Shown here in pieces: positions 4,934 to 38,751 of a DNA stretch of 64,000 nucleotides (position 1 is its first letter; each line of letters opens with the position of its first letter). Position numbers and translations under genes: made by a program. The DNA comes from a virus (lineage: Duplodnaviria > Caudoviricetes): positions 202,154-266,153 of the IMG/VR virus record IMGVR_UViG_3300002092_001784; one strand, 5' to 3'. The notes under the pieces are model-generated. The model saw only the letters and a list, made by a program, of their open reading frames with translations, did not search any database and was not told the origin of the DNA.

Positions 4934-4939
4934 TAATAT

Positions 4940-7093: not shown

Positions 7094-7121
7094 ACCGATA
7101 TTTATACATAAACAGTAATGT

Positions 7122-8069: not shown

Positions 8070-8113
8070 AATAAAAAATAGTTATATTTATAATAAACTA
8101 AAACTTAATAACT

Positions 8114-8323
8114 ATGTCAAAGATACTTGATTTATACGGTAAGGGAACTATAACAGGAGCTCCTAATTTAACTGGATTAGATAAGACACCAATAGATACT
8201 AAAGAGTTAACACCTGCTGCAATTGATAAAGCAAACTTAGGAGTATTGGGAAGTGGCAATCCATCTGGCTATGGTGGATATGATAATGCAAAAACTTACG
8301 AATCACTGATTGGGGCAAAATAA
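8114..8323 (+). CDS. Small hypothetical protein
   Basis: 69-aa ORF preceded by the ATATTTATA motif and an A-rich start. Confidence 0.6.
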   Translation: MSKILDLYGKGTITGAPNLTGLDKTPIDTKELTPAAIDKANLGVLGSGNPSGYGGYDNAKTYESLIGAK

Positions 8324-8326
8324 ATA

Positions 8327-19300: not shown

Positions 19301-22300
19301 ATCGGTAGTACCTGCTGGACCAATGAGTGTTGTAGGAAATGTAGCAACAATTACTTCTGCAAACTTCACAGGAAGTTCTGGTACAAACGCATCTATGATT
19401 GTTACGGCATCTATGTACGATACCACAACTTTAACTACCTATTCGGATTATATGACCGTTGCTTTGGTTACGGAAGGTAGTGATGCTATTACAGCAGTAC
19501 TTTCAAACGAAGCAGTTGCATTTGCATCCGATATAAACGGTACTATTTCTCCTGCAAATTATGCTGGCAGTGGTACGAAAATATATGTATATCAGGGAGC
19601 AACTCAATTAGATTATACCGGCTCATCACCTACTGCAAGTTCATGGACTACGGTAGCTACTGTAAATGGTATAAATTCGCCAGTTATCACCGATGGTGGA
19701 ACTTTTGCGGTTATAGCTGATTATACATCTATGACTTCTGATGCAGCAAGCGCTTCATTTGCAATAACCGGTTACGGACAAAATGGAAGTAGTTTCTCAC
19801 CAATTACAAAAATTCAATCTTTTGTAAAGGCAAAATCGGGAACGAATGGTACGGCAGGTAGTAGTGGTACTGCTGGTTTATCGGGTAGAGTTTTAAGATT
19901 GGCATCCCCATCCCAAGTCTTTACCAAATTAAAGACCGGTGCAATTACACCAACCTCAATAACATTAACTGCTAATACACAAAACATAGCAGGTACAAAT
20001 AGTCCTTCGGGTTTGGCGGGAAAGACTCTGACATTGACGTCTGGAACAGTACCTCAGATATTTACTAAAACGGGTACAACACTTTCACCAACACAAATGG
20101 TTCTCACCGCAAATCCGCAAAATATAGTAAGTGCGTCTGGTACTTTTGTAACATTCACAACTTCATCGGTTGGTTCGGCTGGGCCGTTAACTATTGTAGG
20201 AAACGTAGCAACACTACCATCGGCATCAATGGGGGCTAATACATATATGGGTATTACTGCTTCAATGTATGATATTACAACGGGCGCAACTTATTCGGAT
20301 TACATAACAGTGCCTGTTGTTGTCAGTAGTGCTACTACAATTACACCAGTACTTACAAATGAATACCATTTAGTTCCTGTTGATAATAATGGTGGTGTTA
20401 TAAGTTTGGCAGGTAGTGGTACATCAATATATGTGTATCAGGGTGCAACGGCATTAACATATGTTACGGGCCCAACCACTGCAAATGGACAATGGACTAT
20501 GACAGCAGTTGCAAACGGTGTATCTTCACCCGTTATTGGTGGAAGTGGTACTACTTTCGCTACAATTGGTCAGTATTCATCAATGACAGCAAATACCGCT
20601 ACTGTTACCTTTACAATATCAGGAAAACAATCTGGAGGTACAGCATTTGGTCCGATTACAAAAACACAAACACTTCTACAAGTAAAATCGGATATATCGG
20701 ATGTTGCCACATTCACATTTTCTTCAATTACACCTGCCGGTCCGTTGAATATTATTGGAAACAATGCAACAATTACTTCCGCAAATTTCACAGGAAGTGC
20801 CGGTAATAATACTGCTATGGTTGTGACTGCTTCAATTTATGATACGGCTACCAATTCCAACTATTACGATTATATGACCGTTGCTTTGGTTAATGAAGGT
20901 ACAGATGGTATTACGGCAGTACTTTCAAACGAAGCACAAACATTCGCATCTGATATAAACGGTAATGTACTTGCCTCTAGTTTTGTTGGGAGTGGTACGA
21001 ACATTTATGTATATCAGGGAGCAACACAGTTACAATATACTGGTTCATCACCTACCGCAAGTTCATGGACTGTAGTAGCTACTCCAACCGGCATGAGTAC
21101 TCCATCGATTACAGATGGTGGAACTTTTGCGGTTGTGGCTGATTATACATCTATGACATCAACAGCAGATTCTGCTAGTGTTTCATTTGCAATAACCGGA
21201 TATGGTCAGAATGGAAGTAGTTTTTCACCGATTACAAAAATACAATCATTTACAAAAGCAAGGTCTGGTACGAACGGAACGGCAGGAACAGCAGGAACGG
21301 CAGGTGCAAATGCAGTTGTTATAACGATGACACCACCTGCACAAAGTGTACCATACAGTAGTAGTTATGGTACTCCAGTCACAGTACAAGTATCAGTTGT
21401 GGAAAACGGAACGGCATATACACCAACTACTGCAAATCCACTAACTGTAAATTCAACATATAGAATTACCGCAGTAAGTGGGTGTACTGTTAATGCGGTA
21501 ACTGGTGTAGTAACACCAACAACACCATCTGCATTGACAGGAACTACTGCTGTTTTTTCTGTTCAATACAGAGATAGTAAAGGTATTATTTCCGGAACAA
21601 TTAACCAAACACATATTGTTACCGTAGTTCCTAGTGGTGATCCGGGACCGGGTGTTGTTTATAGGGGTGCATATGTATCTACGGTTGTATATTATTACAC
21701 ACCGACCCGTAGAGATGTTGTTTCATATGGTGGGGTATATTATTTGGCAAATAATACAGCTAAAAGTGGTACTAACGGTTGGGCAACTCCAACTGGTACG
21801 GGTGATTGGGCTAATTTTGGTGCAACGTTTACATCTGTTGCTACTGATATTCTTTTTGCACAAGATGTATATGCAAATCGAACAATTAATATTGGGGCAA
21901 GTGGTGCAACTCCAGTAATTGCATTAAATTCCGATAATGCTGGTGCTGGCGCAAACCCATCTATTAGAATTAGTAATAGCGGATACAATACAACTGGGAT
22001 TTTCATAGGATATGATTTAACTGTTCCAAAGTTATCATTAAAGAGTGCTGGTGGTAGCTACTTAACATGGGATAATTCTTCTTTAACCATAAGTGGTAGT
22101 ATAACTGCTACAAATGGTACGGTTGGGGGTTGGACAATTGGTTCAACTGCATTACAATCACCGGCCGTAAGTCCTAAAGCAGTACTAACCGCAGGTTCTA
22201 CACCATCATTATCATTAGGACAATCAACTATTGGATATGGTAATGTTGGTGTGTTTTTAGGTTATACTGGAACTATTGCACAATTATCATTATCTGGTTC

Positions 22301-23816
22301 AACTGGAGGATTGACATGGGATGGTACATCATTAGCTATCACTGGGAGTATAAAATCAACGTCTGGTGTAATTGGTGGTTGGAATTTGGGAGTATCTACA
22401 TTATCAGGCACTAATATGGTTTTGACTTCTGGTACAACACCATCTATTTCAATCGCACAAGCTAGTCCAGCGTATAACACTAGTGGTGTATTTATGGGAT
22501 ATAATGGTACTAGTGGGTTATTATCATTGGTAGGTGGTTCTAATTCATTTGTATGGAATGGCTCAGCATTGGCTATAAATTCCGGCACATTCGCATTGGA
22601 TTCTACGGGAAAGGTGACCGCCACAAATGGTTCATTTTCGGGTACGGTGAATGCATCCAACGGTAGTTTTACTGGAACTGTTTTTGCATCTGGAGGTAAT
22701 ATTGGTGGTTGGAATATAAATTCAACTCAAATTACTATTCCAAACTCAATAACATTAGATTCATCAACAAAACAAATTATATTAAATGATTCGGCTGGGA
22801 CTCCGAGAGTTACATTGAGTACCAATGCAAGTTTATCTAATTTAATAGCAGGTGGAACTGGTGCTAGTGGTACTAAAACTTTAGGACAATTAGCTGCAAA
22901 TGCATCAACAAATGTAGAATACACTTCCGCTGCTGTTGCTACAATTACATCAACAACTTCCGGAAAGGTATATACCGTAACAGCCACAACGACAGGAAAT
23001 AATGGACAGACATTTTGGCAAATAACCGCACCAAGTACCACCGCAATGAGTACAAATGGTGGTTCGTATCGAATATATTTATTTAACGGTACTACAAGCA
23101 TTAATGTACTTACGTTTAATACTACTGGTTTGGCTGGCAATACACCACTTACTCAAACTTTTCAATCGGATGGAGCTACCAATACAGTATCATTTACTGG
23201 AGATGGTACAACATGGAATTTATATGTTGCCGCATCTATTATATTTTCACCAACAACCGGTGTAAATACATTATTAAACAATCCGGCATTTAATTGGTCT
23301 TGGGCAAATCCAATTGGAGCAACTGAAATATTGGCAGGCGGTATGCAAGTTGTATATGATTCGACTCACTATGTACAGATGCCACGTACCGGTGCAGCAA
23401 CAACTTTGGTAGTTGCCGGAAACATTACTGCAACTGGAACTATTACACCTGGGACATCTGATAGAAGATTAAAAACTAATATAATTAATATAGATGGCGC
23501 ACTTGATAAACTGAATAAAATAAATGGAATTTATTTTAATTTTAATGATATTGCAAATAATTTTGTACCATTTTATGGAAATAAAAAACAAATAGGTGTA
23601 ATCGCACAAGAAGTTAGTGAAATATTTCCTGATATTGATGGTATTGCACCACTTGCGCCATTTGATAATGATGGCAATGATAATTCTAAATCCGGTCAAA
23701 ACTATTTAACAGTTCAATATGAAAAAATAGTTCCACTTCTTATAGAAGGTATCAAAGAATTGTCCAAAAAAGTAGATGATTTACAATTTCAAATAATCAG
23801 TGGCTCAAAAATATAA
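13383..23816 (+). CDS. Giant tail fibre/adhesin with repeated beta modules and C-terminal peptidase S74 intramolecular chaperone
   Basis: 3477 aa, Ser/Thr/Gly-rich. It has repeated ~230-aa modules, GGW(T/N)I repeats and TSDRRLKTNI...IGVIAQEV...VQYEKIVPLLIEGIKEL at 23457-23816. Confidence 0.88.
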   Translation: MARIKKYSPNIDPHLTNYATFIVDTNPNSDYFKITEFKEAFTGGKNGFLIEGSEHLLETTEIKIEILDVDGNPIYYEPGQGVPEYYEGLSKVVAVYIYEDTPIGTAKITILGELKTYNTNGVVQTIPAEWQNLYNVKWEKTFKVNRLLSNEDKVRFYKRPQVQIEELVKPLYSTTLNQITQNGIVNGTPLSPVEGQDLTNYKLATFYRLTATDTTAWTGSIVGTSLSFPDINYYPLADEVINTNELIVSTPYTSGSIVQSFVSQSYTASFSLLSGISASTVTGSFAKMTISDLTTFVGDVARVKVFRLSASDVGDYQFVQEVVLESNELLVDLNTTNSLQEYYGIFTQPILETYWVTSSNNLVTTFDQSYLYDSARFNGTDIPNYFYTVDTIPITAGVEYTLDFNVRLSQNVSSSYYISAFLSGSRQTTVNGIPTTIQINQPIATINSSDSLLQKSTSTSNINAESIDNAKLYFEIVGSGWYIANVSFKASQETAFSPDVISFIQSVPRSLPTETFNYRFEFYDINNNYIPVKVEASKTFTGGNQQALTKTLRLLPNNLYFQFDSASKAVPPTTINFNIQSTGITSSFNYTSRSFDISGFPVSQSLYIGGQYPGLLQFDSSSNAYLTVGNFTGSNPAVSVQYIEYTVESEGVTDSTVITKMVSGASGLPGADGAPAVTYTIRPYNGTAIRNSSTASLEVQAVKTIGSADILLSSTAIDNAGIVKLHVLSGSKYIPLDSASAAGYVVGLKTGSIGTHEINYNPIFYRESITNEIVLYLMPASANPLPSQIYTSLTLQDLQDGLNPGSLSTTGDMLTSDYTVSTVFSPTKGAATASFFLRGTTTNPIVACVDVYPSMSYDSNFLPRYWLYYTTGSVNPTISVQAVDDNKNIVQMGALGSYTADLAKQSKNISFTFTYTEPYTQATATANKTFTIVPSARAGYDAVSFELTPPTIVLNADAKGNILDYSPTITDLRVKQGVNYLTFTGSGAGGTFYTSSAITSVNITKGTLSSSTASLHLGVASNSTKLSGSITYPITYHPFFTQSSYTTTITQPISTVLAGAPPINIIVSPSAYNFTGDQNGVINNYTGSNTKIQIQEGTDYLVYTTTPGPGTFQLSSATFNNITASSIVGSGNTVNVTGFSNMNPLITTASVNYNFVVHPYSIYPGYSIGTSSLSTTQIFTRVNAGPTGSSGTSGADPVVITINPTTVVLGADPMGVVTGSGYLPTVTDITLMQGTRYLAFTSSKQTGSFYTSSAIVGAGITVGQLSGSYTASLHLGTASLMVTGSSLTASITYPLVIYPYNSSSYTTTVTQQITKAVQGGYPITVNLNPTAVSLPADYTGHITDYTPANTQITVTEGPHSSVFTASGAPGTFQMLAAIADGWSSYPSPAVGDNTLTASYSGSTATGNWVMADNIDAASINYLMLVYPYSLTSYATLVSKTQTFSKSKAGAAGVSGTSGNSAKTLMLSATSQIFTKSKTGTISPSAIGFTAKKQNLTGTTTFQSNPSGLLSSIVGDTAVLTSTDFGSNTSVAITASVVDGATTYYDYMTVALVSDGGNALTAVLSNEAVGIPADYSGNVLSYNGSGTVIYLYEGSTQLDYTASNSFNNGSWTVSAASVGINDAVITDTGTTATVSDYTQMGYGINNATVTFTITGRTQNGSLFSALSKTQVITKVLQGISAKNLSINASSFTFSSNAVGAVTPTSILFSATKQNITAPVTYTSVPSATFTNLVNDTATLTYSNFSSAVGSATSLIVTASCTDGAVTYYDYTTISLIKDGTNTLTPVLSNEAVAIPVDSSGNVISYAGTGTQLYVYQGTTPLNYVLQFPTASGYWTAVPIGTNIIVSSGVSGDISASYADYSGLTVGATGATVNFIISGTGLNGSSFSGLSKLQTIATVKSGTSGTAGSSGTAGSSGTAGSSGTAGLSGRVLRLTTPSQVFTKLKTGVITPTSISLTAIPQNIVGTSAYATFYSSSVVPAGPMSVVGNVATITSANFTGSSGTNASMIVTASMYDTTTLTTYSDYMTVALVTEGSDAITAVLSNEAVAFASDINGTISPANYAGSGTKIYVYQGATQLDYTGSSPTASSWTTVATVNGINSPVITDGGTFAVIADYTSMTSDAASASFAITGYGQNGSSFSPITKIQSFVKAKSGTNGTAGSSGTAGLSGRVLRLASPSQVFTKLKTGAITPTSITLTANTQNIAGTNSPSGLAGKTLTLTSGTVPQIFTKTGTTLSPTQMVLTANPQNIVSASGTFVTFTTSSVGSAGPLTIVGNVATLPSASMGANTYMGITASMYDITTGATYSDYITVPVVVSSATTITPVLTNEYHLVPVDNNGGVISLAGSGTSIYVYQGATALTYVTGPTTANGQWTMTAVANGVSSPVIGGSGTTFATIGQYSSMTANTATVTFTISGKQSGGTAFGPITKTQTLLQVKSDISDVATFTFSSITPAGPLNIIGNNATITSANFTGSAGNNTAMVVTASIYDTATNSNYYDYMTVALVNEGTDGITAVLSNEAQTFASDINGNVLASSFVGSGTNIYVYQGATQLQYTGSSPTASSWTVVATPTGMSTPSITDGGTFAVVADYTSMTSTADSASVSFAITGYGQNGSSFSPITKIQSFTKARSGTNGTAGTAGTAGANAVVITMTPPAQSVPYSSSYGTPVTVQVSVVENGTAYTPTTANPLTVNSTYRITAVSGCTVNAVTGVVTPTTPSALTGTTAVFSVQYRDSKGIISGTINQTHIVTVVPSGDPGPGVVYRGAYVSTVVYYYTPTRRDVVSYGGVYYLANNTAKSGTNGWATPTGTGDWANFGATFTSVATDILFAQDVYANRTINIGASGATPVIALNSDNAGAGANPSIRISNSGYNTTGIFIGYDLTVPKLSLKSAGGSYLTWDNSSLTISGSITATNGTVGGWTIGSTALQSPAVSPKAVLTAGSTPSLSLGQSTIGYGNVGVFLGYTGTIAQLSLSGSTGGLTWDGTSLAITGSIKSTSGVIGGWNLGVSTLSGTNMVLTSGTTPSISIAQASPAYNTSGVFMGYNGTSGLLSLVGGSNSFVWNGSALAINSGTFALDSTGKVTATNGSFSGTVNASNGSFTGTVFASGGNIGGWNINSTQITIPNSITLDSSTKQIILNDSAGTPRVTLSTNASLSNLIAGGTGASGTKTLGQLAANASTNVEYTSAAVATITSTTSGKVYTVTATTTGNNGQTFWQITAPSTTAMSTNGGSYRIYLFNGTTSINVLTFNTTGLAGNTPLTQTFQSDGATNTVSFTGDGTTWNLYVAASIIFSPTTGVNTLLNNPAFNWSWANPIGATEILAGGMQVVYDSTHYVQMPRTGAATTLVVAGNITATGTITPGTSDRRLKTNIINIDGALDKLNKINGIYFNFNDIANNFVPFYGNKKQIGVIAQEVSEIFPDIDGIAPLAPFDNDGNDNSKSGQNYLTVQYEKIVPLLIEGIKELSKKVDDLQFQIISGSKI
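19089..19154 (+). repeat. 18-nt tandem repeat encoding (GTAGSS)n
   Basis: GGTAC(A/G)GCAGGTAGTAGT occurs three times plus a partial copy. Confidence 0.9.
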
Positions 23817-23859: not shown

Positions 23860-24147
23860 ATGGCATTAAAGACAGAAGAATTAAAAAGGGATATTTACGA
23901 AAAGATTATCTCAAACCAACAATCCGCAAATGAAGCAATTTCATTGTTAGGACAGATACATCTTAAAATTAAAGAATTGAAAGATGGTATCAAACAGTTG
24001 GAATCTGAACAGTTATCCAATGAATCTAAATTTATACAGTCAGACAAAACTCTAACTGAAATTATACGTTCTTTGGAATTAAAATATCCAAACGGAGAGA
24101 TTGATCTAAAAACAGGTACAGTAACTTACGATTCTGACCAACAATAA
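23860..24147 (+). CDS. Small coiled-coil protein, possible fibre-associated chaperone
   Basis: Heptad-rich 95-aa ORF directly after the tail fibre gene with its own late motif. Confidence 0.5.
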   Translation: MALKTEELKRDIYEKIISNQQSANEAISLLGQIHLKIKELKDGIKQLESEQLSNESKFIQSDKTLTEIIRSLELKYPNGEIDLKTGTVTYDSDQQ

Positions 24148-24179
24148 TTTGGAAATGTGAAATATTTTTAGTATCTTTG
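24148..24179 (+). promoter_or_regulatory. Consensus Bacteroidota primary sigma promoter (TTTG-N20-TATCTTTG)
   Basis: TTTG at 24148-24151 and TATCTTTG at 24172-24179 with a 20-nt spacer, 24 nt before the glycosyltransferase ATG. Confidence 0.8.
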
Positions 24180-24203: not shown

Positions 24204-26378
24204 ATGCGCAAACAAAAGTTACTTTACGTTGCACCTCATTTATCTACGGGTGGACTTCCACAATATCTTTATAAACAAATAACACATTTTAGTGATGAAT
24301 TTGAAATCGAAGTTGTGGAAGTCCATAATATGGGCGGTGAGGTATTTGTAGTTCAAAAGAACCGAATACGAAATACCGTTCCACTTCACACTCTTGGTGA
24401 AAACAAATCTGAAATATTGGATATTATAACTCAGTTTCAACCCGATGTTATACATTTTCAAGAAATACCCGAATATGATATTGCTACTAATATTTTGGAT
24501 ACTATTTTCTCAAAAAATAGAAAGTATTTCATTATAGTAACCACACATGGTTCTAATACCAATCCAGAAACAATATCATACCACCCGGACAAATACGTTT
24601 TAGCATCCGAATGGAGTAGACGACGGTTTGAAATAACTGGAGTGCCAACCGATGTATGGGAGTATCCAATATATGATATTCGTACTGAAATTGGACTGAC
24701 CAAAGAAGAAGCACAACGGAAATTAGAATTAGACCCGACATGGAAGCATGTACTTAATGTTGGATTATTCACACAAGGTAAAAATCAGGCAGAGATATTT
24801 GCTATGGCTAGGCAGTTGGAAAAATATAAAATAAAATTCCACTTTGTTGGCAATCAGGCGGGTAATTTTGAATCATATTGGAAACCTCTAATGGATTATA
24901 AGCCAGATAATTGTGTTGTGTGGGGTGAACGAACTGATACTGATACATTTTATGCGGCATGTGATTTGTTTTACTTTAGTTCTAAATTGGAATTGAATCC
25001 GTTATCGGTTAAGGAAGCGCTTTCATTTGATATGCCATGCCTTTTCCGCAAATTAGAAACTTATTTGGACAGCTATGATAATAATGAACTTGTCACATAT
25101 ATAACAGATGATGTAAACATAACCAAACGAATCCTATTGGAAAAACTACAACCGGAATTAAATGAAGTTGTTGGGTGGTTTTCATATGATTATCTATATG
25201 ATAGTATGGTTAATTCTGTCAAAACTCCAGTTGAATTTGTTGAGGTTGGTGCATGGCTGGGTAAATCTACAAACTATATGGCAACTCGCATTAGGGAATC
25301 GGGAAAACCAATTCATTTTACAACAGTTGATACTTGGAAAGGTACGGATGATGAAGAACTACATCAGAATATAGTAAATACGTTTAACGGTGATATTTTT
25401 TATGAATTTATTGATAACACAGTTATATCTAAAAACTACGGAACATTTGATTGTATAAAAGATACATCGGAGAACGCTTCAAAACTGTTTGCAAATAATT
25501 CGATTGATTTTATTATGTTGGATGCTGGTCATTCATATGAATCGGTTAGAGATGATTTGAAATATTGGTATCGTAAAGTTAAACCCGGAGGAATTATTTC
25601 TGGAGATGATTATCGTATTATGTTTGAGGGAGTAACTAGGGCAGCCGATGAATACTTTTACGGACAAGTTGAACATTCAAACCTTCAATTTGTTAGAAAA
25701 AAACCAAAGATTCAAATTTTACACCTATTGACCAGACCCGATGATATGAGGGAGAGGGTTAGTATTGCTTCGTTAAAACAGTTGGAACAGTACGGTATGA
25801 AATATACTCAAATGGTTAATACACCTTATGATGGGTTGCCGCCAAAAGAACATTGTTCGAGACCCGATGCAATAAGTGATACTCCTAGGTACTTAGGAAA
25901 CGGATTTGGAACTATAACTGGTAGACACTATGGCTGTTATCTTGCTCATAGGGGAGCGTTAGAAGCAATGAGTGATGAGTATGATTATACTCTTATATTT
26001 GAAGCAGATGCTTTCATTTATACCGGTCTGGAAGAATTTGTGGATATTGTACATAAAGCCTGTTTCATATCTGAACGGGATAATGTACCTTATATCGGTT
26101 TGGCGAATAATCCATCGTGGAATAAATGGGAAGTTGATGGATTGTTTAGTAAAACAGATTACAATCAGGATTTAGCACACTGTTACCTAATACCAAATCG
26201 TGAAAAAGATTGGTGGATGGACAGAATTGAAGATATTCCTTGGGATGTGGCTGATTTATGGTATAATAATGTTTTTCTTAACAGACCACGTCCTCGTTAT
26301 ACTACAAATAAAATGTATAGTAAACAGGCAGAGGGATTTTCACTTTTAGATCAAACAGTTAAAACTTGGAATGAATGA
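24204..26378 (+). CDS. Three-domain protein: GT-B (GT4-like) glycosyltransferase, SAM methyltransferase, GT25-like glycosyltransferase
   Basis: HLSTGGLPQY...FYAACDLFYFSSKLELNPLSVKEA (GT4-like), FVEVGAWLGKST...MLDAGHSYE...PGGIISGDDY (class I methyltransferase), GCYLAH...LIFEADA (GT25-like). Confidence 0.75.
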   Translation: MRKQKLLYVAPHLSTGGLPQYLYKQITHFSDEFEIEVVEVHNMGGEVFVVQKNRIRNTVPLHTLGENKSEILDIITQFQPDVIHFQEIPEYDIATNILDTIFSKNRKYFIIVTTHGSNTNPETISYHPDKYVLASEWSRRRFEITGVPTDVWEYPIYDIRTEIGLTKEEAQRKLELDPTWKHVLNVGLFTQGKNQAEIFAMARQLEKYKIKFHFVGNQAGNFESYWKPLMDYKPDNCVVWGERTDTDTFYAACDLFYFSSKLELNPLSVKEALSFDMPCLFRKLETYLDSYDNNELVTYITDDVNITKRILLEKLQPELNEVVGWFSYDYLYDSMVNSVKTPVEFVEVGAWLGKSTNYMATRIRESGKPIHFTTVDTWKGTDDEELHQNIVNTFNGDIFYEFIDNTVISKNYGTFDCIKDTSENASKLFANNSIDFIMLDAGHSYESVRDDLKYWYRKVKPGGIISGDDYRIMFEGVTRAADEYFYGQVEHSNLQFVRKKPKIQILHLLTRPDDMRERVSIASLKQLEQYGMKYTQMVNTPYDGLPPKEHCSRPDAISDTPRYLGNGFGTITGRHYGCYLAHRGALEAMSDEYDYTLIFEADAFIYTGLEEFVDIVHKACFISERDNVPYIGLANNPSWNKWEVDGLFSKTDYNQDLAHCYLIPNREKDWWMDRIEDIPWDVADLWYNNVFLNRPRPRYTTNKMYSKQAEGFSLLDQTVKTWNE

Positions 26379-27532
26379 GTATTTACGATAACTTAAAAAA
26401 GAATAATAATAATATAGTTCAAGTTACAAAAGTAAACGATGCAACTATTCATTTTGTGAAAGGACCTTTTGTAGAAATTACAGGCCCAAAGCAAGCCGAT
26501 TATCGAATTGATTTTATTGATAATAATACGGGTAATATATTATATAGCGGAACGCAGAGTAATAATATGTGGTCTAAATGTAATATTGAATATTTTGTAG
26601 ATTGGAAGATTGTAATTTATGAAAATGGTGTATTATGGAAAGAATACCATTATGATGTAAACGGTAAGCATGTTTATATTGCATTGGATTCAAAAGCATT
26701 GGGTGATACGTTGGGCTGGTTTCCAATGGCTGATGAATTTAGAAAAAAACATAATTGCCGTTTAAGTGTATCCACATTCAACAATAAATTGTTTAGGGGT
26801 CAATACCCCGATATTAAATTTGTAGAACCGGGAGAAGTTGTAGATAATATTTACGCAATGTATACATTGGGATTGTTTTACAATGAAGATGGCTCGTTGA
26901 ATATGTTTATGCACCCTAATAATCCACGTGAACAACCAATGCAGAAAATGGCATCTGATATATTGGGATTAGAATATAAAGAGGTTCGTCCAAAGTTAAG
27001 AACTCGTCCAATCAATATAGATAAAGATTCTAAGCAGATTACGGTAGGTTTATTTGGAACGGCTCAAGCCAAATTTTGGAATAATCCAAACGGATGGCAA
27101 GAAGTTGTGGATTGGTTAAAGGGTAGAGGGTATACTGTTAGGGTATTATCCAAAGAACCTGATAACTATATGGGAAATCGAATACCAAAAGGTGTAATTC
27201 AACAGGGTGAAGCTCCATTGGTTGATTTAATGGATGAAATGCGGCAATCTAAAGCATTTATTGGAATCGGTAGTGGGTTGAGTTGGTTGAGTTGGGCATT
27301 GAATGTACCAACTGTTCTGATTAGTGGGTTTTCATACGATTGGGCTGAAATGCAAGATTGTATAAGAATATCAGCACCAGCTGGAAAATGCCAAGGTTGT
27401 TTTAATCGGTTGAGATTGGATGCCGGTGATTGGCATTGGTGTCCCGATCATAAAGATACGCCAAAACATTACGAGTGTACAAAAACCATAACAAGCGATA
27501 TGGTTATAAAAGAATTGGAAAAATTTCTATAA
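26375..27532 (+). CDS. aah: Aah/TibC-family protein O-heptosyltransferase
   Basis: N-terminal beta domain IDNNTGNILY, catalytic-type ALGDTLGWFP, FIGIGSGLSWLSWA, and four-Cys metal site C-x2-C-x13-C-x11-C (CQGC...WCPDH...YECTK). Confidence 0.85.
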   Translation: MSIYDNLKKNNNNIVQVTKVNDATIHFVKGPFVEITGPKQADYRIDFIDNNTGNILYSGTQSNNMWSKCNIEYFVDWKIVIYENGVLWKEYHYDVNGKHVYIALDSKALGDTLGWFPMADEFRKKHNCRLSVSTFNNKLFRGQYPDIKFVEPGEVVDNIYAMYTLGLFYNEDGSLNMFMHPNNPREQPMQKMASDILGLEYKEVRPKLRTRPINIDKDSKQITVGLFGTAQAKFWNNPNGWQEVVDWLKGRGYTVRVLSKEPDNYMGNRIPKGVIQQGEAPLVDLMDEMRQSKAFIGIGSGLSWLSWALNVPTVLISGFSYDWAEMQDCIRISAPAGKCQGCFNRLRLDAGDWHWCPDHKDTPKHYECTKTITSDMVIKELEKFL

Positions 27533-27533
27533 T

Positions 27534-27941
27534 ATGAAAGTGTGGATGAATGGTTGTTTTGATGTGTTAGGGCATGGACATTTCAAATTGATAAATCATG
27601 CAGCATCAATCGGAAATGAAGTTGTAATTGGTATTGATACGGATAGACGAGTAAAAATTCTAAAAGATGATACTCGTCCATACCATACAGCAGAAGAACG
27701 AAAGTTCAATTTATTATCAATACGAGGTGTTGATAGGGTAATCATATTCGATTCTGCTGAAGAATTGGCAGAACTTATAAAAACCGAAGCACCTGATATT
27801 TTTTTAATAGGCGAAGATTATATTGGAAAACCGATAGTAGGTGCCGAATACGCCAAAGAAATACATTATTTTCCTAGGCAAGAACGATTGAGTACAACAA
27901 AAATTTTACAAAATGGAAAAGAAAATATTAGTAATTGGTGA
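27534..27941 (+). CDS. rfaE2: HldE/RfaE domain II-like heptose-1-phosphate adenylyltransferase
   Basis: MNGCFDVLGHGH...GIDTD...K..RP...ER...VDRVIIF...IGEDY...STT. The HxGH motif is atypical. Confidence 0.75.
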   Translation: MKVWMNGCFDVLGHGHFKLINHAASIGNEVVIGIDTDRRVKILKDDTRPYHTAEERKFNLLSIRGVDRVIIFDSAEELAELIKTEAPDIFLIGEDYIGKPIVGAEYAKEIHYFPRQERLSTTKILQNGKENISNW

Positions 27942-28659
27942 ATCATGTACGGATGTATTTGTGTATGGTAGTTCAATCCGAAAATCACCTGAAGGTAAAG
28001 GACCAGTATTAGTTCCAACTTCAGAAGTTTATTATTCGGGTATGGCGGCAAATACCTATAATAATCTATTGGCATTGGGAATGGATGCTGCATTATTTTC
28101 TCAAAATTCAGAAATTATAAAAACAAGATATATTGATGATGCGAGTGGTGAATTGTATCTACGAATAGATGAATATGATTCGACAAATCCAATTCAAATG
28201 GAATATTTGCCTGATTTGTCCCAATATGATGCCATCGTTATTTCTGATTACAATAAAGGATTTTTAACAGAACAAAATATACAAACAATCGCATCTAAAC
28301 ACCCATTGGTAATATTGGATACAAAAAAACAACTAGGTGCTTGGTGTAAAGATGTTAAATTCATTAAATTGAATAGAACGGAAAGTGAAAAAAACTTACA
28401 AACTATTTTAAGTTATAATTGGTTGCGTGAGAAGGTGATAAGTACATTGGATAAGGATGGGGCATCATATATGAATAGATTGGTTACCGCAAAACCAGTA
28501 GATGTAGTAGATATATCGGGCGCAGGAGATACTTTTGTTGCTGGGTTTATTAAAGAATACTTAGAATCCAACGATGTATTCAAATCAATCGAATTTGCTA
28601 ATGAATGTGCGGCAATAGTAATTGCTCAAAGAGGTATTACTACCATACAAAAGGATTAA
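27913..28659 (+). CDS. rfaE1: HldE/RfaE domain I-like heptose-7-phosphate kinase (PfkB family)
   Basis: ILVIGESCTDVFVYG...R.SPE, GMAAN, IVISDYNKG, KLNRTE, DISGAGDTF. Confidence 0.85.
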   Translation: MEKKILVIGESCTDVFVYGSSIRKSPEGKGPVLVPTSEVYYSGMAANTYNNLLALGMDAALFSQNSEIIKTRYIDDASGELYLRIDEYDSTNPIQMEYLPDLSQYDAIVISDYNKGFLTEQNIQTIASKHPLVILDTKKQLGAWCKDVKFIKLNRTESEKNLQTILSYNWLREKVISTLDKDGASYMNRLVTAKPVDVVDISGAGDTFVAGFIKEYLESNDVFKSIEFANECAAIVIAQRGITTIQKD

Positions 28660-28705: not shown

Positions 28706-31700
28706 ATGAATGAGCTTGTAAAACATTTAGTTGAAACTATAATTTCGGAAGAAACTGAAAAAAATTATATTGTTGTATATTCCGGTAGATTTCAACCATT
28801 TCACAAAGGACATTATGCTACTTACTTAAATCTTACCAAAAAATTTGGAAAAGATAAAGTTTACATTGCTACGTCTAATGTAACTGATAATAAAAAATCA
28901 CCTTTTAATTTTGCAGAAAAAAAGGTTATAATGACTAGAATGTTCGATATTCCATCGGACAAAATAGTACAGATTAGAAACCCATATGCACCTACTGAAA
29001 TATTAAATAAATATGATCCAGAAAAGACAGGTGTTATTTTTGTTGTTGGTGAAAAGGATACTGCTAGACTTGGTGGTAAATATTTCACACCATATAAGGG
29101 TACGGTTGATGCTGGATATAAAGATAAAGGATATGTATATGCTTCACCTGCACAACCAAACGCAATAAGTGGTACTGATGTTCGTAATTGGTTAGGTAAC
29201 GGTACGGATGAAGAAAAGAGAGCCAATTTTCTGAAAGCATATCCAAAATTCGATGAGAAGATTTTCAAATTAATAACACTCAAGTTGAAAAAATTGGGTG
29301 AATCTATACGTGAGGAAATCAAAATCAATGTAAATGTTGGCGATACGGTGTTAATGGGAAAATTCAAAAACCATCCGGTTAAAGTTAAATCAATCGGTAA
29401 GGATGAACATGGTATGCCAACCATTAATGGAAAGAAAGCCGCTACATTCAGAATAGGTAATCATATAAATATATTTGATACTGCGGTCAATGAAGATGGT
29501 GCGGGCGCCGGAGGTGCTGCCGGGTTTGGAGGACAAGGTGGTGGAGCTGGTGTTGGGTTATCTTTACCCGGTGGATATATAAACGGAGCACCAAATCCAA
29601 AGGATGTTAAAAAGACAAGAAAGAAATTAAAACAAAAAGATGATGATATTTACACACCAGTAAATGAAGCATCTCTTGCTGGATATTATGCTGATAGCGG
29701 AGAACCAAATCCTAATTATGTAGCTGATGGACAAGAACGTATTTTAGATAAAGGAAAGCCAGAACCTTGGTTTACACAAGGAGGGTATACTCAATTACAT
29801 ATTCCAAAAGGTGATTGGATGAGAGGTAAGGCATTAAAAGATCGTGAAGATGATATGCAACTTCGTAAGGTATACTACAAAGTTCAAAATATTAAACAAA
29901 GTGCATTAAATCCGGCAGATGATCCACATACTACCGAAGATTGGCAAGTTGTTAATAGGGATACTCCGTTGGAAAAACCAAAAAGATTTTGGGAATTACC
30001 AAAAAATCAAAAGCCTGAAATAATAGATGATAAAGAAATTACTGAAATATTCAATCAGACCCTAAAAGAATTGGGATTGTTGGAATTTAGTGGTGGGCAC
30101 TCGTTTCCACATGATGGTAACGCAACAACAGGTCGTCAATGGAACAAATCATGGGAAGAATATGATAATCCGGATGCATATATTAAACACCTAATGGGAT
30201 GGTCTACTAAAGATGCCATACCAAGCGATAGGTTTAAGGATATTAAACATCAAGAAATTCCATTAAATCAATCCGGACAGGAAACAGGAATATACGATCA
30301 TACATTGGATTACAATATACTTGCTCCAAATGAATTTTTAGAAAAATCTGAAATTCAAAAGGGTGTGGTGAACGATGCTTCAGATGAAATGCATCGTCCT
30401 TTACATAATGGAATGGAATGGCCATCTATGGATGATATTAAAGCCAAACGAAAAAAAATAAAATCAAAACTTCGAAGTCCTAAAAATTCGTATTTGAGTG
30501 TGGATGCTCCAATCGTAGGTGAAACCGATTCCGAAGCATTAGATGAAATGGCAATGCCAGATATGAAATCGGTAGAAAAATACGCAGATCAACAGTTGAG
30601 TCCGGAAGATGTTGAATTAGGAAAGCAAACTGACCATTTTTTCCAACGATTAAATGATCCACGAAACGGAAAACCAATTTCGACAGCAGAAATGATAGGT
30701 TTCTTTAAGAGGTTGGGTAACAACAAAGAGAAATTTTTAGATTTTGTAAAGAAATATAGTGAATTTGTTGTAAAGGATAATAGAACAAATATCAATATCG
30801 CCTTTATGAAGCAGGCTAATAAACTTATTGCCAAAACGGTGATGAGAAAGCCTGATTTTAAGACAAGCAATCCAATATTTGTAGATGAAGCTGAACAATT
30901 GGATGAATTGGCATGGTCTACTAGTGCATTTAATTTTGTGCAAGATGTTGATGTACCATTTACACCAAAAGTTGCAAAAGCACTCTATGGTGATATGATA
31001 GTTACTACATTTCATGTTAGCGATTCTGATAATATTGATAATATTAAAAAGTTAATCGGTAAGAAAAAATCAGTGTCAACATTTACATATATGGCGCGAA
31101 CCGCTTTGCAGAATATGGATGGTATACAAACCGACGGTGGTATAATATATCAATTAGTTGGTAAGGTTTTAATAGATTCTGCGAATGATATTATGAGTAG
31201 ACCTGATGAACAGGGTAGACGGTGGGTAATGGGACGAGATTTGAATCCAGTTACCTATAAATTGTATCAGAAATTTTATAAGTATATGGGTTCTAAGAAA
31301 GAACTTCAAAAATACGATGAAAAATATGAATCAACTTATGATGCAGACACTGACTCTAGTTCATTAACCAATAAAGAAAAATCTGAATGGATAGCAGCAT
31401 ACATTCGATTGGCTGAAGAGTGGATTATTCAGCACGCCGATGAATTTAGGGATACTATGCGTAAGATGCCAATGGATGAATATTGGAATGAAGTAGTGGT
31501 ATACGATATACACATTAAAGATGTATTGTGGACAAACTCTGGGCAGTTTGGGACGGCTGACGAAGATGAATTGAATGAAATAAGTCATAAATTAAATACA
31601 ATCGCAACCGGAACTGTTTATTACACCGATGAACCTTCAGATGCATTGAAATTTGTAAAATCAAGAGGTGGACAATATGCCAAAGCAAATATCGGATTAC

Positions 31701-32173
31701 CATATAAAGGTGTGCCGGTTGGCAGTACAAATATTAATAGTATATTAAGTGCCGACGCATTTAACATGAAAGAATCGGTTCAACCAATTAGTATCAACGA
31801 AGCAACCGAAGCATTGAAGATGCACATACCATCGGATATTGAGCAAATATATAAAATGTTTCAAAAAAATGGTAAGAAATTGTATATTGTTGGTGGTGCT
31901 GTTAGGGATGCTATTTTGGGAAAGACACCAAAAGATTTTGATTTAGCAACCGATGCTACTCCTGATGAAGTTTTAGCTATGGCTAAAAAGGAAGGTATGC
32001 ATTCGACAGAAGTTGGAAAAGCATTTGGTGTGGTGATTGTTAATGGTAATGAAATAGCAACTTTCAGGAAAGATGTGAAATTAAAAGATAATGCAGATGA
32101 TTTTATAAAATATTTACAATATATTAATATACCGAATACTCGTATATCTACTTTCAAAAAAGAATTGAATTAG
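28706..32173 (+). CDS. Multidomain polyprotein A: NMNAT/NadM-like nucleotidyltransferase, small unknown modules, ART-like module, N-terminal half of class II CCA-adding enzyme
   Basis: SGRFQPFHKGH...SPF...ISGTDVR, then LYIVGGAVRD...KDFDLATD...EIATFRKD near the C-terminus. Modules are bounded by VNE/LDE/INE linkers. Confidence 0.8.
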   Translation: MNELVKHLVETIISEETEKNYIVVYSGRFQPFHKGHYATYLNLTKKFGKDKVYIATSNVTDNKKSPFNFAEKKVIMTRMFDIPSDKIVQIRNPYAPTEILNKYDPEKTGVIFVVGEKDTARLGGKYFTPYKGTVDAGYKDKGYVYASPAQPNAISGTDVRNWLGNGTDEEKRANFLKAYPKFDEKIFKLITLKLKKLGESIREEIKINVNVGDTVLMGKFKNHPVKVKSIGKDEHGMPTINGKKAATFRIGNHINIFDTAVNEDGAGAGGAAGFGGQGGGAGVGLSLPGGYINGAPNPKDVKKTRKKLKQKDDDIYTPVNEASLAGYYADSGEPNPNYVADGQERILDKGKPEPWFTQGGYTQLHIPKGDWMRGKALKDREDDMQLRKVYYKVQNIKQSALNPADDPHTTEDWQVVNRDTPLEKPKRFWELPKNQKPEIIDDKEITEIFNQTLKELGLLEFSGGHSFPHDGNATTGRQWNKSWEEYDNPDAYIKHLMGWSTKDAIPSDRFKDIKHQEIPLNQSGQETGIYDHTLDYNILAPNEFLEKSEIQKGVVNDASDEMHRPLHNGMEWPSMDDIKAKRKKIKSKLRSPKNSYLSVDAPIVGETDSEALDEMAMPDMKSVEKYADQQLSPEDVELGKQTDHFFQRLNDPRNGKPISTAEMIGFFKRLGNNKEKFLDFVKKYSEFVVKDNRTNINIAFMKQANKLIAKTVMRKPDFKTSNPIFVDEAEQLDELAWSTSAFNFVQDVDVPFTPKVAKALYGDMIVTTFHVSDSDNIDNIKKLIGKKKSVSTFTYMARTALQNMDGIQTDGGIIYQLVGKVLIDSANDIMSRPDEQGRRWVMGRDLNPVTYKLYQKFYKYMGSKKELQKYDEKYESTYDADTDSSSLTNKEKSEWIAAYIRLAEEWIIQHADEFRDTMRKMPMDEYWNEVVVYDIHIKDVLWTNSGQFGTADEDELNEISHKLNTIATGTVYYTDEPSDALKFVKSRGGQYAKANIGLPYKGVPVGSTNINSILSADAFNMKESVQPISINEATEALKMHIPSDIEQIYKMFQKNGKKLYIVGGAVRDAILGKTPKDFDLATDATPDEVLAMAKKEGMHSTEVGKAFGVVIVNGNEIATFRKDVKLKDNADDFIKYLQYINIPNTRISTFKKELN

Positions 32174-32211
32174 CCACATTTCGTTTATTTTATTAATTAA
32201 TATTTATATGT

Positions 32212-32964
32212 ATGATTATATACAAAGTAACAAATAAAATAAATAAAAAGATATATATTGGACAAACTATACGTTCAATGACGGAACGTAAATATGGACA
32301 TATAAAATCTGTTAGAATGGGAAGTACTTCGTTGTTTCATAATTCTATTAGAAAATATGGAATTGATAATTTTACATGGGAAGTAATAGACACGGCACAT
32401 TGTATAGAAAAGTTAAATGAATTAGAAATTAGTTATATTGCAAAATTTAATTGTTTTATTGATTTTCAAAATAGTAATGGGTATAATATGAATACTGGTG
32501 GTGGTAATTATATAACATCACATTTAACTAAACAAAAACTTAGTATTATAAATACCGGTAAAATTTTATCAACCGAAACTAAAGAGAAAATCAGTAAAGG
32601 TAACCTTGGAAAATCAGTAACCGAATCATTTCGAAAAACTATGAGTGAGTTAAATAAAGGTAGAGTTGCTAGTTTGGAAACTAGAGAAAAAATAAGTAAA
32701 TCTTTGCAAGGCAAGCCGGGTAGAAATACCGGTAATACGCATACTCAAGAAACTAAAGAAAAAATATCGAATACAAAAAAAGGAACGGTTTCTTGGAATG
32801 CATCGCCAGTTATACAACTAACGATGGACGGCGAATTTGTTAGAGAATGGCGAAGCGCAGCATTTGCCGCATCCCAATTAAAGTTAAGTCAAGGCAATAT
32901 AACATCATGTATACATGGTAAACGAAACAGTACTGGTAACTACAAATGGATTAAAAAAATATGA
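32212..32964 (+). CDS. GIY-YIG homing endonuclease inserted into the CCA-enzyme coding region
   Basis: IIYKVTNKINKKIYIGQT...GYN, several NUMOD3 repeats and C-terminal NUMOD1. The stop overlaps the next start (ATGA). Confidence 0.92.
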   Translation: MIIYKVTNKINKKIYIGQTIRSMTERKYGHIKSVRMGSTSLFHNSIRKYGIDNFTWEVIDTAHCIEKLNELEISYIAKFNCFIDFQNSNGYNMNTGGGNYITSHLTKQKLSIINTGKILSTETKEKISKGNLGKSVTESFRKTMSELNKGRVASLETREKISKSLQGKPGRNTGNTHTQETKEKISNTKKGTVSWNASPVIQLTMDGEFVREWRSAAFAASQLKLSQGNITSCIHGKRNSTGNYKWIKKI

Positions 32965-37908: not shown

Positions 37909-38751
37909 ATGATTATATATAAAGCTACAAACAAAGTAAGTGGTAAGTGCTATATTGGGCAAACTGTTAAGACTTTAGAAAATAGAATATATCATCACAT
38001 TTCTAATTCTAAATCTGCAATACATAAAAGTATTTTTCACAATGCTTTGAAATCTTATGGTTCTGATAATTTTGAATGGGAAGTTATAGCAACGGCCGAT
38101 ACAAAAGAACAACTTAATGAATTGGAAATATACTATATAACAAAATATGATAGTATAAATACCGGTTATAATATGGTTGAAGGTGGGACTGGTGGTTACA
38201 ACCAATTTGCGGTAGATGCAAACAAATTAAAAAGAGCAGGTAAAACTTGGAATGAAATATATTCAGATACGGGGTTGGCTGTTATGAAAAATGCATTATC
38301 TACTTTTACTAAAGCTGGGGTTGAATATATTAAAAATTTACCAAAAGAACAAAGAATTATTAATGCAAAACGAGCTAACAAAGCCAGAACTGATATGGGA
38401 TATAAACATAGTGATGCAACAAAAGATAAAATGAGTAAAGCTCAAAAAGGTATAACCAATACAGACCGATATGGTGAAGATGCTGCCAGCGAACTAAAAA
38501 AGAAAATATCCGAAGCAACTAAAGAAGCTATGAAAAAAGTGGACAGGGATTTAATCGGAAGAAAATCAGTTGAAGCTCGTACACCATTTTGGAATAAAAA
38601 ACACGAAAATGATAGAAATGTGATATTAGAGATGACAAAACTGGGTAGTAAAATTAAAGATATAATGTTTGCTATAAATGTATCACCACCGACTTATTAT
38701 AAACGAGTTAATGAATTGAAAAATATGGGATACTCCAATTTGTTTGAATAA
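37909..38751 (+). CDS. Free-standing GIY-YIG homing endonuclease
   Basis: IIYKATNKVSGKCYIGQT...GYN, NUMOD3 HSDATKDKMSKA, C-terminal HTH-like segment. Confidence 0.88.
   Translation: MIIYKATNKVSGKCYIGQTVKTLENRIYHHISNSKSAIHKSIFHNALKSYGSDNFEWEVIATADTKEQLNELEIYYITKYDSINTGYNMVEGGTGGYNQFAVDANKLKRAGKTWNEIYSDTGLAVMKNALSTFTKAGVEYIKNLPKEQRIINAKRANKARTDMGYKHSDATKDKMSKAQKGITNTDRYGEDAASELKKKISEATKEAMKKVDRDLIGRKSVEARTPFWNKKHENDRNVILEMTKLGSKIKDIMFAINVSPPTYYKRVNELKNMGYSNLFE

Follow-up and report, generated by a model that had tools for sequence, protein, structure and literature searches.

The four genes at positions 24204-28659 (+ strand) of the stretch of 64,000 nucleotides analyzed here (the window) probably make up an operon by which the phage O-glycosylates the proteins of its virion fibres, as judged from sequence comparisons and structural models. 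The window belongs to the 266 kb genome of a freshwater phage (CheckV completeness of 100%). The operon comprises ORFs of 724 aa (24204-26378), 385 aa (26375-27532), 135 aa (27534-27941), and 248 aa (27913-28659), in exact agreement with the content and coordinates given in a preliminary description of this DNA. The junctions between consecutive genes are of -4, +1, and -29 nt, hence the genes form one translationally coupled operon. In the mechanism we propose, the 385-aa protein, an enzyme of the TibC/Aah family, would modify the phage's own Ser/Thr-rich fibres, foremost their Pro-free Gly-Ser/Thr-Ser/Thr collagen-like tracts. The 724-aa protein would then extend the glycan by up to two sugars and O-methylate it. 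The small kinase and nucleotidyltransferase would turn heptose 7-phosphate made by the host into NDP-heptose, with a host phosphatase of the GmhB type trimming the 1,7-bisphosphate intermediate.

By sequence and predicted fold, the 385-aa protein (26375-27532, + strand) is a glycosyltransferase of the TibC/Aah family (BAHT, bacterial autotransporter heptosyltransferases, which link heptose to adhesins) and a predicted protein O-heptosyltransferase. It scores 275.8 bits (E 5e-82) against TIGR04414 (hepto_Aah_TibC), whose cut-off is 200 bits, and matches TibC (4RAP) with an E-value of 2e-51. Its model (pLDDT 92.5) superposes on TibC with a TM-score of 0.85 and an rmsd of 2.5 A, versus a TM-score of ~0.45 for the next-best GT9 protein, the LPS heptosyltransferase WaaC. 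It has in common with TibC/Aah (PDB 4RAP/4RB4) the N-terminal beta-barrel, the GT-B core, the catalytic Asp, the Thr/Lys/Trp donor contacts, and the four-Cys iron finger. The preliminary description had noted an Aah/TibC-like gene retaining LGDxxxW and the four-Cys site, and the alignment bears this out: LGDTLGW (residues 109-115) aligns with LGDLLGW of TibC, the site of Asp-110, and C339, C342, C356, and C368 align with Cys-339/342/358/370. The TibC counterparts of these cysteines and of D111, T229, K233, and W304, all conserved in the phage enzyme, are essential (Yao et al. 2014, PMC4358343). The Thr, Lys, and Trp are phosphate and sugar contacts, the Trp being the one to heptose O4. In contrast, the adenine contact of TibC, Arg-286, whose alanine mutant loses activity, is replaced by Leu-285, at a position that varies across the subfamily. 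The stereoselectivity residue Pro-300 is a Gly. Hence, the ADP specificity of the transferase is not secured, and we infer the identity of its donor. The phage enzyme also differs from TibC/Aah in having a thumb segment shorter by 3 residues and in being phage-encoded and coupled to three additional glycan-tailoring domains. Our literature search found no paper on phage TibC-like enzymes.

The genes that accompany TibC homologues point to the acceptor. We compared two sets of IMG/VR records of similar total size, and found a TibC homologue in 12 of the 44 records with (Gly-Ser/Thr-Ser/Thr)x8 collagen-like repeats and in 0 of the 46 with Pro/Gln-type collagen repeats (Fisher p = 7.7e-5, uncorrected for phylogeny and with most records being fragments). 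The co-occurrence with such repeat genes across phages, suggested as a check in the preliminary description, is thus observed. In seven unrelated and diverse phage loci, the TibC homologue and the repeat gene lie 1.5-4 kb apart. The pairing extends to bacteria, where such repeats occur within 8 kb of 26 of the 42 nearest bacterial/MAG TibC homologues versus 3 of 38 that are more distant. The TibC homologue of Methylobacter luteus has a Collagen-Pfam gene directly 5' of it, with housekeeping genes around the two. The phage's own Ser/Thr-rich fibres, the target put forward initially, are thus the best supported, whereas the ADP-heptose donor that accompanied this proposal is not secured given the Leu in place of Arg-286.

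It is very unlikely that the enzyme acts instead on a non-fibre protein, be it another one of the virion, e.g., a capsid decoration, or one of the host, e.g., a defence or receptor protein that heptosylation would inactivate. The acceptor is assigned from gene linkage only, a second large cluster of sugar genes is present in the genome, and bacterial protein-modifying glycosyltransferases do serve as effectors against foreign proteins. Yet the association is specific to the Ser/Thr-type of collagen-like repeats and is missing for the Pro/Gln-type, and the two-gene cassette of M. luteus points to the neighbouring collagen-like protein as the substrate.

Several fibres of the phage are candidate acceptors. 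The giant tail fibre (13383-23816, + strand, 3477 aa), assigned by PHROG tail fibre families, has 27% of Ser+Thr and carries a C-terminal Peptidase_S74 intramolecular chaperone (PF13884, E 1e-13, residues 3359-3417). The preliminary description placed the operon right after this gene; its identity as a tail fibre holds, but a conserved ORF of 95 aa (23860-24147, + strand) lies in between. The collagen-like runs of this candidate acceptor (Gly-Thr/Ser-Ala/Ser) are short and only four in number (residues 1449, 1900, 2153, and 2629), and richer candidates are found 26-38 kb downstream and at the start of the genome. These include, all on the + strand, a collagen-like tail fibre of 268 aa (54705-55511; 10 Gly-Ser/Thr-Ser/Thr triplets, PHROG tail fibre families) and another of 691 aa (58487-60562; 32% of Ser+Thr, PF01391 Collagen E 1e-16, PHROG tail fibre and collagen-like minor tail families). 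The richest candidate is a collagen-like fibre gene that runs off the end of the record (62307-64000; PF01391 173 bits, PHROG tail fibre families), with 53% of Ser+Thr and 15 Pro-free Gly-Ser/Thr-Ser/Thr blocks. Fibre genes of the Gly-Ser/Thr-Ser/Thr type number at least six in this genome. As in TibC/Aah, the predicted enzyme is soluble and cytoplasmic and its gene adjoins one for a repetitive Ser/Thr-rich surface protein, but the genome has no autotransporter, and the enzyme likely modifies a collagen-like or Ser/Thr-rich fibre as opposed to a beta-helical adhesin.

The order fibre, 95-aa ORF, glycosyltransferase/methyltransferase, and TibC homologue is kept across 80 related loci. The 95-aa ORF had no match in Pfam, NCBIfam, or PHROG, and has a homologue in 74 of these loci. 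It is preceded by its own ATATTTATA motif (at 23824), and so is the giant fibre gene (at 13348). Of the 16 sites of this phage promoter-like motif in the window, 14 precede a start by no more than 80 nt. The operon lacks it, even if neighbouring genes have one. A putative Bacteroidota -7-like motif, TATCTTTG (TAnnTTTG; 24172-24179, + strand), lies 32 nt 5' of the operon start; only 3 of the 53 TAnnTTTG sites in the window precede a start so closely. This hints weakly that the operon is timed apart from its neighbours. The absence of their late-type motif would also fit an operon that remodels the host surface (envelope proteins or lipopolysaccharide), e.g., blocking superinfection by rival phages. 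Such a role was proposed for rfaE and glycosyltransferases encoded close to tail fibre genes in SAR11 phages (host-recognition clusters of pelagimyophages; PMC7029224), and LPS/LOS synthesis is where the GT25 and GT9 folds are best known. We consider it unlikely, since the enzyme is structurally much closer to the protein-modifying TibC than to LPS heptosyltransferases, tracks the Gly-Ser/Thr-Ser/Thr repeat genes in phages and bacteria, and is kept beside the fibre gene in the 80 loci.

The 724-aa protein had been described as a fusion of a glycosyltransferase, a methyltransferase, and another glycosyltransferase, which agrees with our assignments, the first two by Pfam and the third by fold. 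The GT4 (GT-B) domain (24204-25178, + strand, residues ~1-325) matches Glycos_transf_1 (PF00534, E 6e-9), PF13692, and, at residues 3-322, the glycosyltransferase family phrog_2170. The SAM-dependent methyltransferase domain (25200-25673, + strand, residues 333-490) is by sequence of the Methyltransf_24/TylF-like sugar O-methyltransferase type (PF13578, E 7e-19, residues 346-470; PF05711, E 2e-6). It also matches phrog_2675, labelled DNA methyltransferase, and phage clusters of glycosyltransferases and methyltransferases often act on DNA. Even so, it is extremely unlikely that the glycosyltransferases hypermodify the phage DNA, as in the glucosyl-hmC of T4: the TibC family targets protein Ser/Thr, the families matched by the methyltransferase are those of sugar O-methyltransferases, the operon is in a structural rather than a replication region, and DNA modification would not account for the link to repeat proteins.

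The third domain (25671-26378, + strand, residues 490-724) had no sequence match in Pfam or PDB, but the Protein Atlas relates it to PF01755 clusters. Its AF2 model (pLDDT 78) suggests a GT-A, GT25-like glycosyltransferase, since Foldseek matches it to COLGALT1, a collagen hydroxylysine galactosyltransferase (9evk, E 1.6e-7, TMq 0.59), to LgtB/LgtE, and to Mimivirus R655. The identity to GT25 proteins is only 14-17%, and the likeness to a collagen-modifying enzyme may be a coincidence. The fold matches also include PDB 2P72/2P73, which we take to be A064R of the chlorovirus PBCV-1. A064R is a three-domain GT-GT-methyltransferase protein involved in capsid glycosylation. It is also a viral multi-domain glycosyltransferase/methyltransferase fusion, with a methylated glycan made in the cytoplasm on a virion protein. 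However, it comes from a eukaryotic virus, with an N-linked capsid glycan, other GT families, and no heptose. Among phages, mycobacteriophage glycosyltransferases O-glycosylate virion proteins (Freeman et al. 2023, cited in PMC12619734). As presented there, the glycans are on the C-termini of capsid and tail-tube proteins, and the system uses different GT families, with neither a TibC homologue nor donor synthesis genes.

The transferases of the operon seem to act in one pathway, since, besides the order kept in 80 loci, the GT4-methyltransferase protein and the TibC domain are one polypeptide in the Microcystis phage Mel-JY01, and the TibC domain is fused to GT4 in 27 and to a methyltransferase in ~20 of the 60 nearest cluster representatives.

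By sequence, both small genes are HldE-like, since the best family of each is the corresponding HldE domain. The nucleotidyltransferase (27534-27941, + strand, 135 aa; phrog_7878, E 2e-36) resembles domain II (TIGR02199, 85.9 bits), is 29% identical to residues 343-474 of E. coli HldE, and has the HxGH-type GHGH and STT motifs. The shortened PfkB sugar kinase (27913-28659, + strand, 248 aa) resembles domain I (TIGR02198, 104.3 bits; next best, ribokinase, 44.7 bits), aligns to residues 13-303 of HldE (23% identity), and retains the SPE and GAGDT motifs. Both are far below the curated cut-offs (181.5 and 345 bits, respectively). As initially described, this is a split and order-swapped HldE, with the nucleotidyltransferase first and the kinase second. 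In E. coli, HldE is a bifunctional heptose 7-phosphate kinase/heptose 1-phosphate adenylyltransferase. The phage pair shares with it and with the split HldA/HldC a PfkB kinase and a nucleotidyltransferase of the cytidylyltransferase fold, but the phage kinase is ~60 residues shorter than that of HldE.

The pair might activate another sugar or polyol phosphate, with a TibC-like enzyme of shifted donor attaching a non-heptose sugar to proteins. Low scores, the loss of Arg-286 and Pro-300, the sequence RQERLSTT departing from (F/L)xxGxSTT, and a 68-bit match of the nucleotidyltransferase to TagD, its best solved relative, are compatible with this; it resembles a glycerol-3-phosphate cytidylyltransferase. 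Moreover, GmhA and GmhB are absent from the entire 266-kb genome. We regard a sugar other than heptose as rather unlikely, because both genes score best against HldE domains, the kinase matches rfaE_dom_I better than ribokinase (104 versus 45 bits) and retains an SPE segment of the HldE type, a PfkB kinase with such a nucleotidyltransferase is the architecture of HldE, and the Trp contacting heptose O4 and the phosphate contacts are conserved in the transferase.

The absence of GmhA and GmhB, noted initially for the window, thus extends to the complete genome, where our search for gmhA, gmhB, and hldD revealed no clear HldD partner either. Hence, if the donor is heptose, the phage depends on a host already making heptose 7-phosphate. 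The pair is also accessory, being present in 38 of 80 close relatives, nearly all of which have the transferases. On both counts, the earlier idea that the phage supplies the donor because its host may not make it is not supported. With the start of the pathway and the phosphatase coming from the host, the pair would boost or redirect the supply of donor during infection, not create the pathway. The activation of ALPK1 by ADP-heptose, also raised initially, is irrelevant to a freshwater phage.

Viral heptose kinases and nucleotidyltransferases were reported to be functional, with no phosphatase encoded alongside (Tang et al., Science 2024), according to two commentaries that leave their role open (PMC11461863, PMC11573728). 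The phage pair has the same composition, although, relative to the enzymes presented there, its nucleotidyltransferase lacks the promiscuity motif (F/L)xxGRSTT and the genes share an operon with a predicted protein heptosyltransferase. This shared operon suggests a use for such enzymes. The glycan, for which stability, shielding, and adhesion were suggested initially as benefits, might shield the fibres from proteases or defences, contribute to their solubility or stiffness, or participate in receptor binding.

The window is the terminal 64 kb of a 266,153-bp virus record, rated 100% complete by CheckV, from a distant T4-like myophage of freshwater metagenomes. All the runs listed by a sequencing-run search were freshwater DNA metagenomes, with no RNA run among those listed. 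The four genes at 24204-28659 encode a 724-aa protein with two predicted glycosyltransferase domains and a methyltransferase domain (24204-26378), a 385-aa TibC-like transferase (26375-27532), a 135-aa nucleotidyltransferase (27534-27941), and a 248-aa kinase (27913-28659). These ORFs overlap or abut, with junctions of -4, +1, and -29 nt, and make up one coupled operon. On its 5' side lie a 3477-aa gene (13383-23816, hereafter the giant fibre) and a conserved 95-aa ORF (orf95, 23860-24147). The giant fibre is a tail fibre gene, with PHROG tail-fibre matches, a Peptidase_S74 chaperone at the C-terminus, and a Ser+Thr content of 27%. The position of the orf95 homologue varies among the relatives, where it is found either ahead of the glycosyltransferase/methyltransferase gene or behind that for the kinase or TibC. 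No match to the operon came from a megablast search of 50,697 phage records. We hold it to be fairly probable that this operon adds O-linked sugars, in the cytoplasm, to the Ser/Thr-rich collagen-like fibres of the phage itself. A first heptose would be attached to fibre Ser/Thr by the TibC-like enzyme, and further sugars by the GT4 and GT25-like domains; the methyltransferase domain would methylate the glycan, and the kinase and nucleotidyltransferase would top up the donor supply.

The 385-aa protein is a member of the bacterial autotransporter heptosyltransferase family (TibC, Aah), because of its profile score, its fold match to TibC, and the conservation of essential residues. Against the equivalog model TIGR04414, which has a cut-off of 200, it reached 275.8 bits in an alignment spanning positions 16-373 of the 374 in the model, in agreement with a six-frame search of the genome; against TibC, the E value was 2e-51. 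Its AF2 model, built with a 30-sequence alignment (pLDDT 92.5), has strands at residues 22-92 forming an N-terminal beta-barrel, followed by the two Rossmann-like lobes of a GT-B catalytic domain. Foldseek placed this model on the TibC structures 4RAP and 4RB4 with a TM of 0.85 and an rmsd of 2.5 Å over 374 columns. The next-best folds were LPS heptosyltransferases, at ~0.45-0.5; next to these values, the alternative that the operon remodels the host surface seems to us decidedly unlikely. A homodimer prediction gave a score of 0.01, which counts neither for nor against a dimer. The family around this protein is large, as 1,490 clusters at 50% identity reach E <= 1e-3.

We mapped onto the protein the essential residues of TibC established by Yao et al. 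2014 (PMC4358343). The catalytic base and donor contacts are kept, i.e., Asp-110 corresponds to D111 (within LGDTLGW), Thr-226 to T229, Lys-230 to K233, and Trp-305 to W304, all of them invariant or nearly so in 30 homologues. The predicted iron finger also appears to be retained, with TibC Cys-339/342/358/370 at C339/C342/C356/C368, conserved in 29 of the 30 homologues. The deviations concern the acceptor type and the adenine contact. In TibC, Arg-286 touches adenine N1 and is the basis of ADP specificity, the R286A mutant being inactive (PMC4358343). The phage protein has Leu-285 at this position, and the column contains V, T, R, L, I, or A among the 30 homologues. Pro-300, a determinant of D,D-heptose selectivity in TibC that is Ser in Aah (PMC4358343), is replaced by Gly-299. 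TibC has a beta-hairpin thumb and forms a dodecameric ring. In the phage protein, the thumb segment counts 19 residues instead of 22 and has Tyr-265/Met-266 at the tip where TibC has Phe-265/Val-266; the model contains a minimal hairpin only. With these replacements on one side and the conserved catalytic base and donor contacts on the other, we regard protein O-glycosylation with a sugar other than heptose as unlikely; it would itself be compatible with a fibre target.

The preliminary description was correct in calling the 724-aa protein a GT-MT-GT fusion. Pfam identified a GT4 domain and a TylF/Methyltransf_24-type methyltransferase, and the third domain is a GT-A transferase by predicted fold. 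No family could be assigned by sequence to the last 235 residues: residues 483-724 gave no Pfam match at E <= 0.01, PF01755 (GT25) included, and a sequence search of the domain against the PDB returned nothing even at E 10. The model of these residues (pLDDT 78) is nearest to the GT25 enzymes COLGALT1, LgtB/LgtE, and Mimivirus R655 (E ~1e-7, TMq ~0.6), so that the likeness to GT25 is one of fold and language-model similarity only. The 724-aa protein would work together with the TibC-like enzyme, since both are joined in a single 1226-aa polypeptide in Microcystis phage Mel-JY01, since the TibC domain is fused to GT4 in 27, and to a methyltransferase in about 20, of the 60 nearest 50%-cluster representatives, and since the two genes are adjacent in 77 of the 80 related loci. 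For an operon that pairs these proteins next to a tail fibre gene, glycosylation of the phage DNA as a form of DNA modification is barely credible.

The kinase and nucleotidyltransferase resemble the two domains of E. coli HldE, in swapped order. The 135-aa protein matched best HldE domain II (TIGR02199; 85.9 bits, under the cut-off of 181.5), with TagD as runner-up at 68 bits. It is 29% identical to HldE residues 343-474 and keeps the HxGH and STT motifs. The promiscuity motif (STTR5) (F/L)xxGRSTT is absent from it, the sequence being RQERLSTT instead. For the 248-aa protein, the best family was HldE domain I (TIGR02198; 104.3 bits, under the cut-off of 345), ahead of ribokinase (45 bits); it aligns with HldE residues 13-303 at 23% identity and keeps SPE and GAGDT. 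We searched the rest of the genome for the other steps of the pathway. There was no match to GmhA (TIGR00441, SIS_2) and no credible candidate for GmhB in the whole genome, the best HAD match having an E value of 0.05. The single candidate for HldD is an SDR epimerase of generic type, encoded in a sugar cluster elsewhere in the genome, with 90 bits on heptose_epim and equal scores on dTDP-glucose dehydratase and GalE. This gene set fits the published account (PMC11461863) in which viruses are reported to carry heptose enzymes without the phosphatase.

The donor genes are also unevenly distributed. Of the 80 related loci, 38 carry the nucleotidyltransferase and 37 the kinase, and in three large relatives without the pair beside TibC, 72-133 kb of sequence contain no kinase at all. 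This patchy presence and the lack of GmhA and GmhB suggest that the pair is a dispensable aid to donor supply, dependent on the host for GmhA and for a phosphatase. The earlier proposal that the phage supplies a donor its host may not make is therefore not upheld: absent GmhA and GmhB, and found in only 38 of 80 relatives, the pair is no substitute for a missing host pathway. As to the host, capsid similarity is 50.5% to Flavobacterium phage immuto and 50.6% to Mel-JY01, and is among the grounds for suspecting the order Flavobacteriales, which we take as a lead only. The heptose pathway is patchy within this order. A stand-alone HldE-type kinase (257-334 bits) and GmhA occur together in 32 of 81 sampled genomes, mostly ones of 1.6-2.5 Mb, and both are missing from 44.

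At least six candidate acceptors are encoded in the genome; they share collagen-like Gly-Ser/Thr-Ser/Thr runs that lack proline, and all are tail-fibre-like by PHROG or Pfam Collagen. One is the giant fibre, whose runs are short and four in number; the others are the genes at 54705-55511 and 58487-60562, the gene from 62307 to the end of the window (Ser+Thr 53%, 15 blocks), and two genes at genome positions 199-2799 and 4304-6430. The acceptors of TibC and Aah are autotransporter adhesins with a strand-loop-strand motif. No autotransporter beta-domain (PF03797) occurs in the 266 kb of this genome, and the repetitive proteins linked to the TibC-like enzyme are tail fibres and collagen-like proteins. 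A protein target other than the fibres is very improbable in our judgement.

To assess the association across phages, we scanned IMG/VR for (GGN WSN WSN)x8 and, as control, with a generic collagen-like repeat scan restricted to Pro/Gln-type repeats (2.39 vs 2.24 Mb in total). TIGR04414 matches were present in 12 of the 44 Ser/Thr-repeat records and in none of the 46 Pro/Gln-type ones (Fisher p = 7.7e-5, a value that ignores shared ancestry and includes many records that are fragments), and 10 of the 12 matches exceed the cut-off. They are mostly fusions of 680-1380 aa and differ in architecture from the window's clade, where the gene stands alone. Seven Ser/Thr-repeat loci have a TibC homologue (36-50% identical) 1.5-4 kb or less from the repeats. 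The predicted co-occurrence with GSS-repeat genes across phages was thus found, both in these counts and as physical linkage. In 80 bacterial or MAG loci with homologues, repeats occur within 8 kb in 26 of the 42 nearest and in 3 of the 38 more distant ones, again ignoring shared ancestry. In Methylobacter luteus (L319, 6980-9182), a 287-aa Collagen-Pfam gene lies directly 5' of the TibC homologue, and the pair is flanked by mfd and ordinary metabolic genes, hence it is not a prophage. In Bordetella sputigena (L362, 7860-10432), the homologue adjoins a (GSSGSG)n protein ending in a PA-IIL fucose-binding lectin domain. The TibC homologue thus appears to be tied to Gly-Ser/Thr-Ser/Thr repeat genes; judged from sequence, the direction of the evidence is clear, in samples that ignore shared ancestry.

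Mel-JY01 (PP395634.1) shows the pairing in a cultured phage. Plus-strand ORFs with Gly-Thr/Ser-Ser collagen-like repeats, at 635-3052 and 9152-9658, lie on either side of its fused GT4-MT-TibC gene (4747-8430), which has the same orientation. The GenBank annotation places minus-strand hypothetical ORFs over both collagen-like stretches, which is probably a strand mis-call due to the repeats. As this cultured carrier has the fused enzyme between two collagen-like ORFs, the idea of fibre glycosylation is directly testable.

A broader proposal, for which we see the chances as evenly balanced, is that one branch of the TibC/Aah family serves, in many aquatic phages and in some bacteria, specifically to start methylated, heptose-first O-glycans on proline-free Gly-Ser/Thr-Ser/Thr collagen-like fibres. 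This would amount to a virion glycocalyx system not described so far and would explain the viral NDP-heptose enzymes, the kinase/nucleotidyltransferase pair being gained and lost between close relatives. Autotransporter heptosyltransferases, HldE, viral heptose enzymes, and phage virion glycosylation are each already known; our literature search found no paper on phage TibC/Aah homologues, on heptosylated phage fibres, or on the joining of these elements. If true, a glycosylation system known only from enterobacterial virulence adhesins would reach phage particles, and bacterial-type collagen-like repeats would be a new acceptor class for it. This would also offer an answer to what viruses use heptose for, a question that the 2024 cross-kingdom work on NDP-heptose enzymes left open. 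A glycan coat on the fibres would bear on how the phage recognises its host, how it withstands proteases and grazers, and how defence systems detect it, with relevance to lake phage ecology and phage fibre engineering.

The operon differs from its neighbours in its upstream sequence. The motif ATATTTATA has 16 copies in the window (e.g., at 13348, 23824, 28674, 32200, and 37879), of which 14 lie 11-56 nt before a start codon, and it is likely a phage (late?) promoter element. It precedes the giant fibre gene, where the copy is the palindromic TATTTATAAATA, as well as orf95 and the gene after the operon. None precedes the operon itself, which has instead a TAnnTTTG site 32 nt upstream of its start; this weakly hints at a timing different from that of the neighbours. 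Sigma-70 promoter and terminator scans were not enriched over shuffles (82 vs 79 promoter-like and 12 vs 8 terminator-like sites), and no terminator was found between the giant fibre gene and the operon.

Downstream, at 28706-37844, two ORFs of 1155 and 1627 aa each carry part of a CCA-adding nucleotidyltransferase (PolyA_pol head domain), at the end of the first and the start of the second. The 1627-aa ORF also has HD, P-loop kinase, and RNA-ligase-like parts. The two ORFs are separated by a GIY-YIG/NUMOD3 homing endonuclease gene (32212-32964), and a second GIY-YIG endonuclease lies at 37909-38751. An Rfam scan of 23-39 kb gave no match, not even to a group I intron next to the homing endonuclease gene. 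The middle of this polyprotein gene is highly variable among the relatives. At the other end of the window, the very Ser/Thr-rich fibre gene (62307-64000) crosses the record end, and the genome start (1-7000) has collagen-like fibre genes too. Joining the record ends did not keep the reading frame of the crossing gene, so the record is probably cut or short of sequence in the repeat region despite its CheckV rating. Outside the window, a second and larger sugar gene cluster (genome 62001-81000) comprises a GT4, three or four GT2, a UDP-GlcNAc 2-epimerase, a DegT-type aminotransferase fragment, a class I methyltransferase, and an SDR epimerase/dehydratase, together with a fusion of a beta-phosphoglucomutase-like HAD to a sugar-1-phosphate nucleotidyltransferase.
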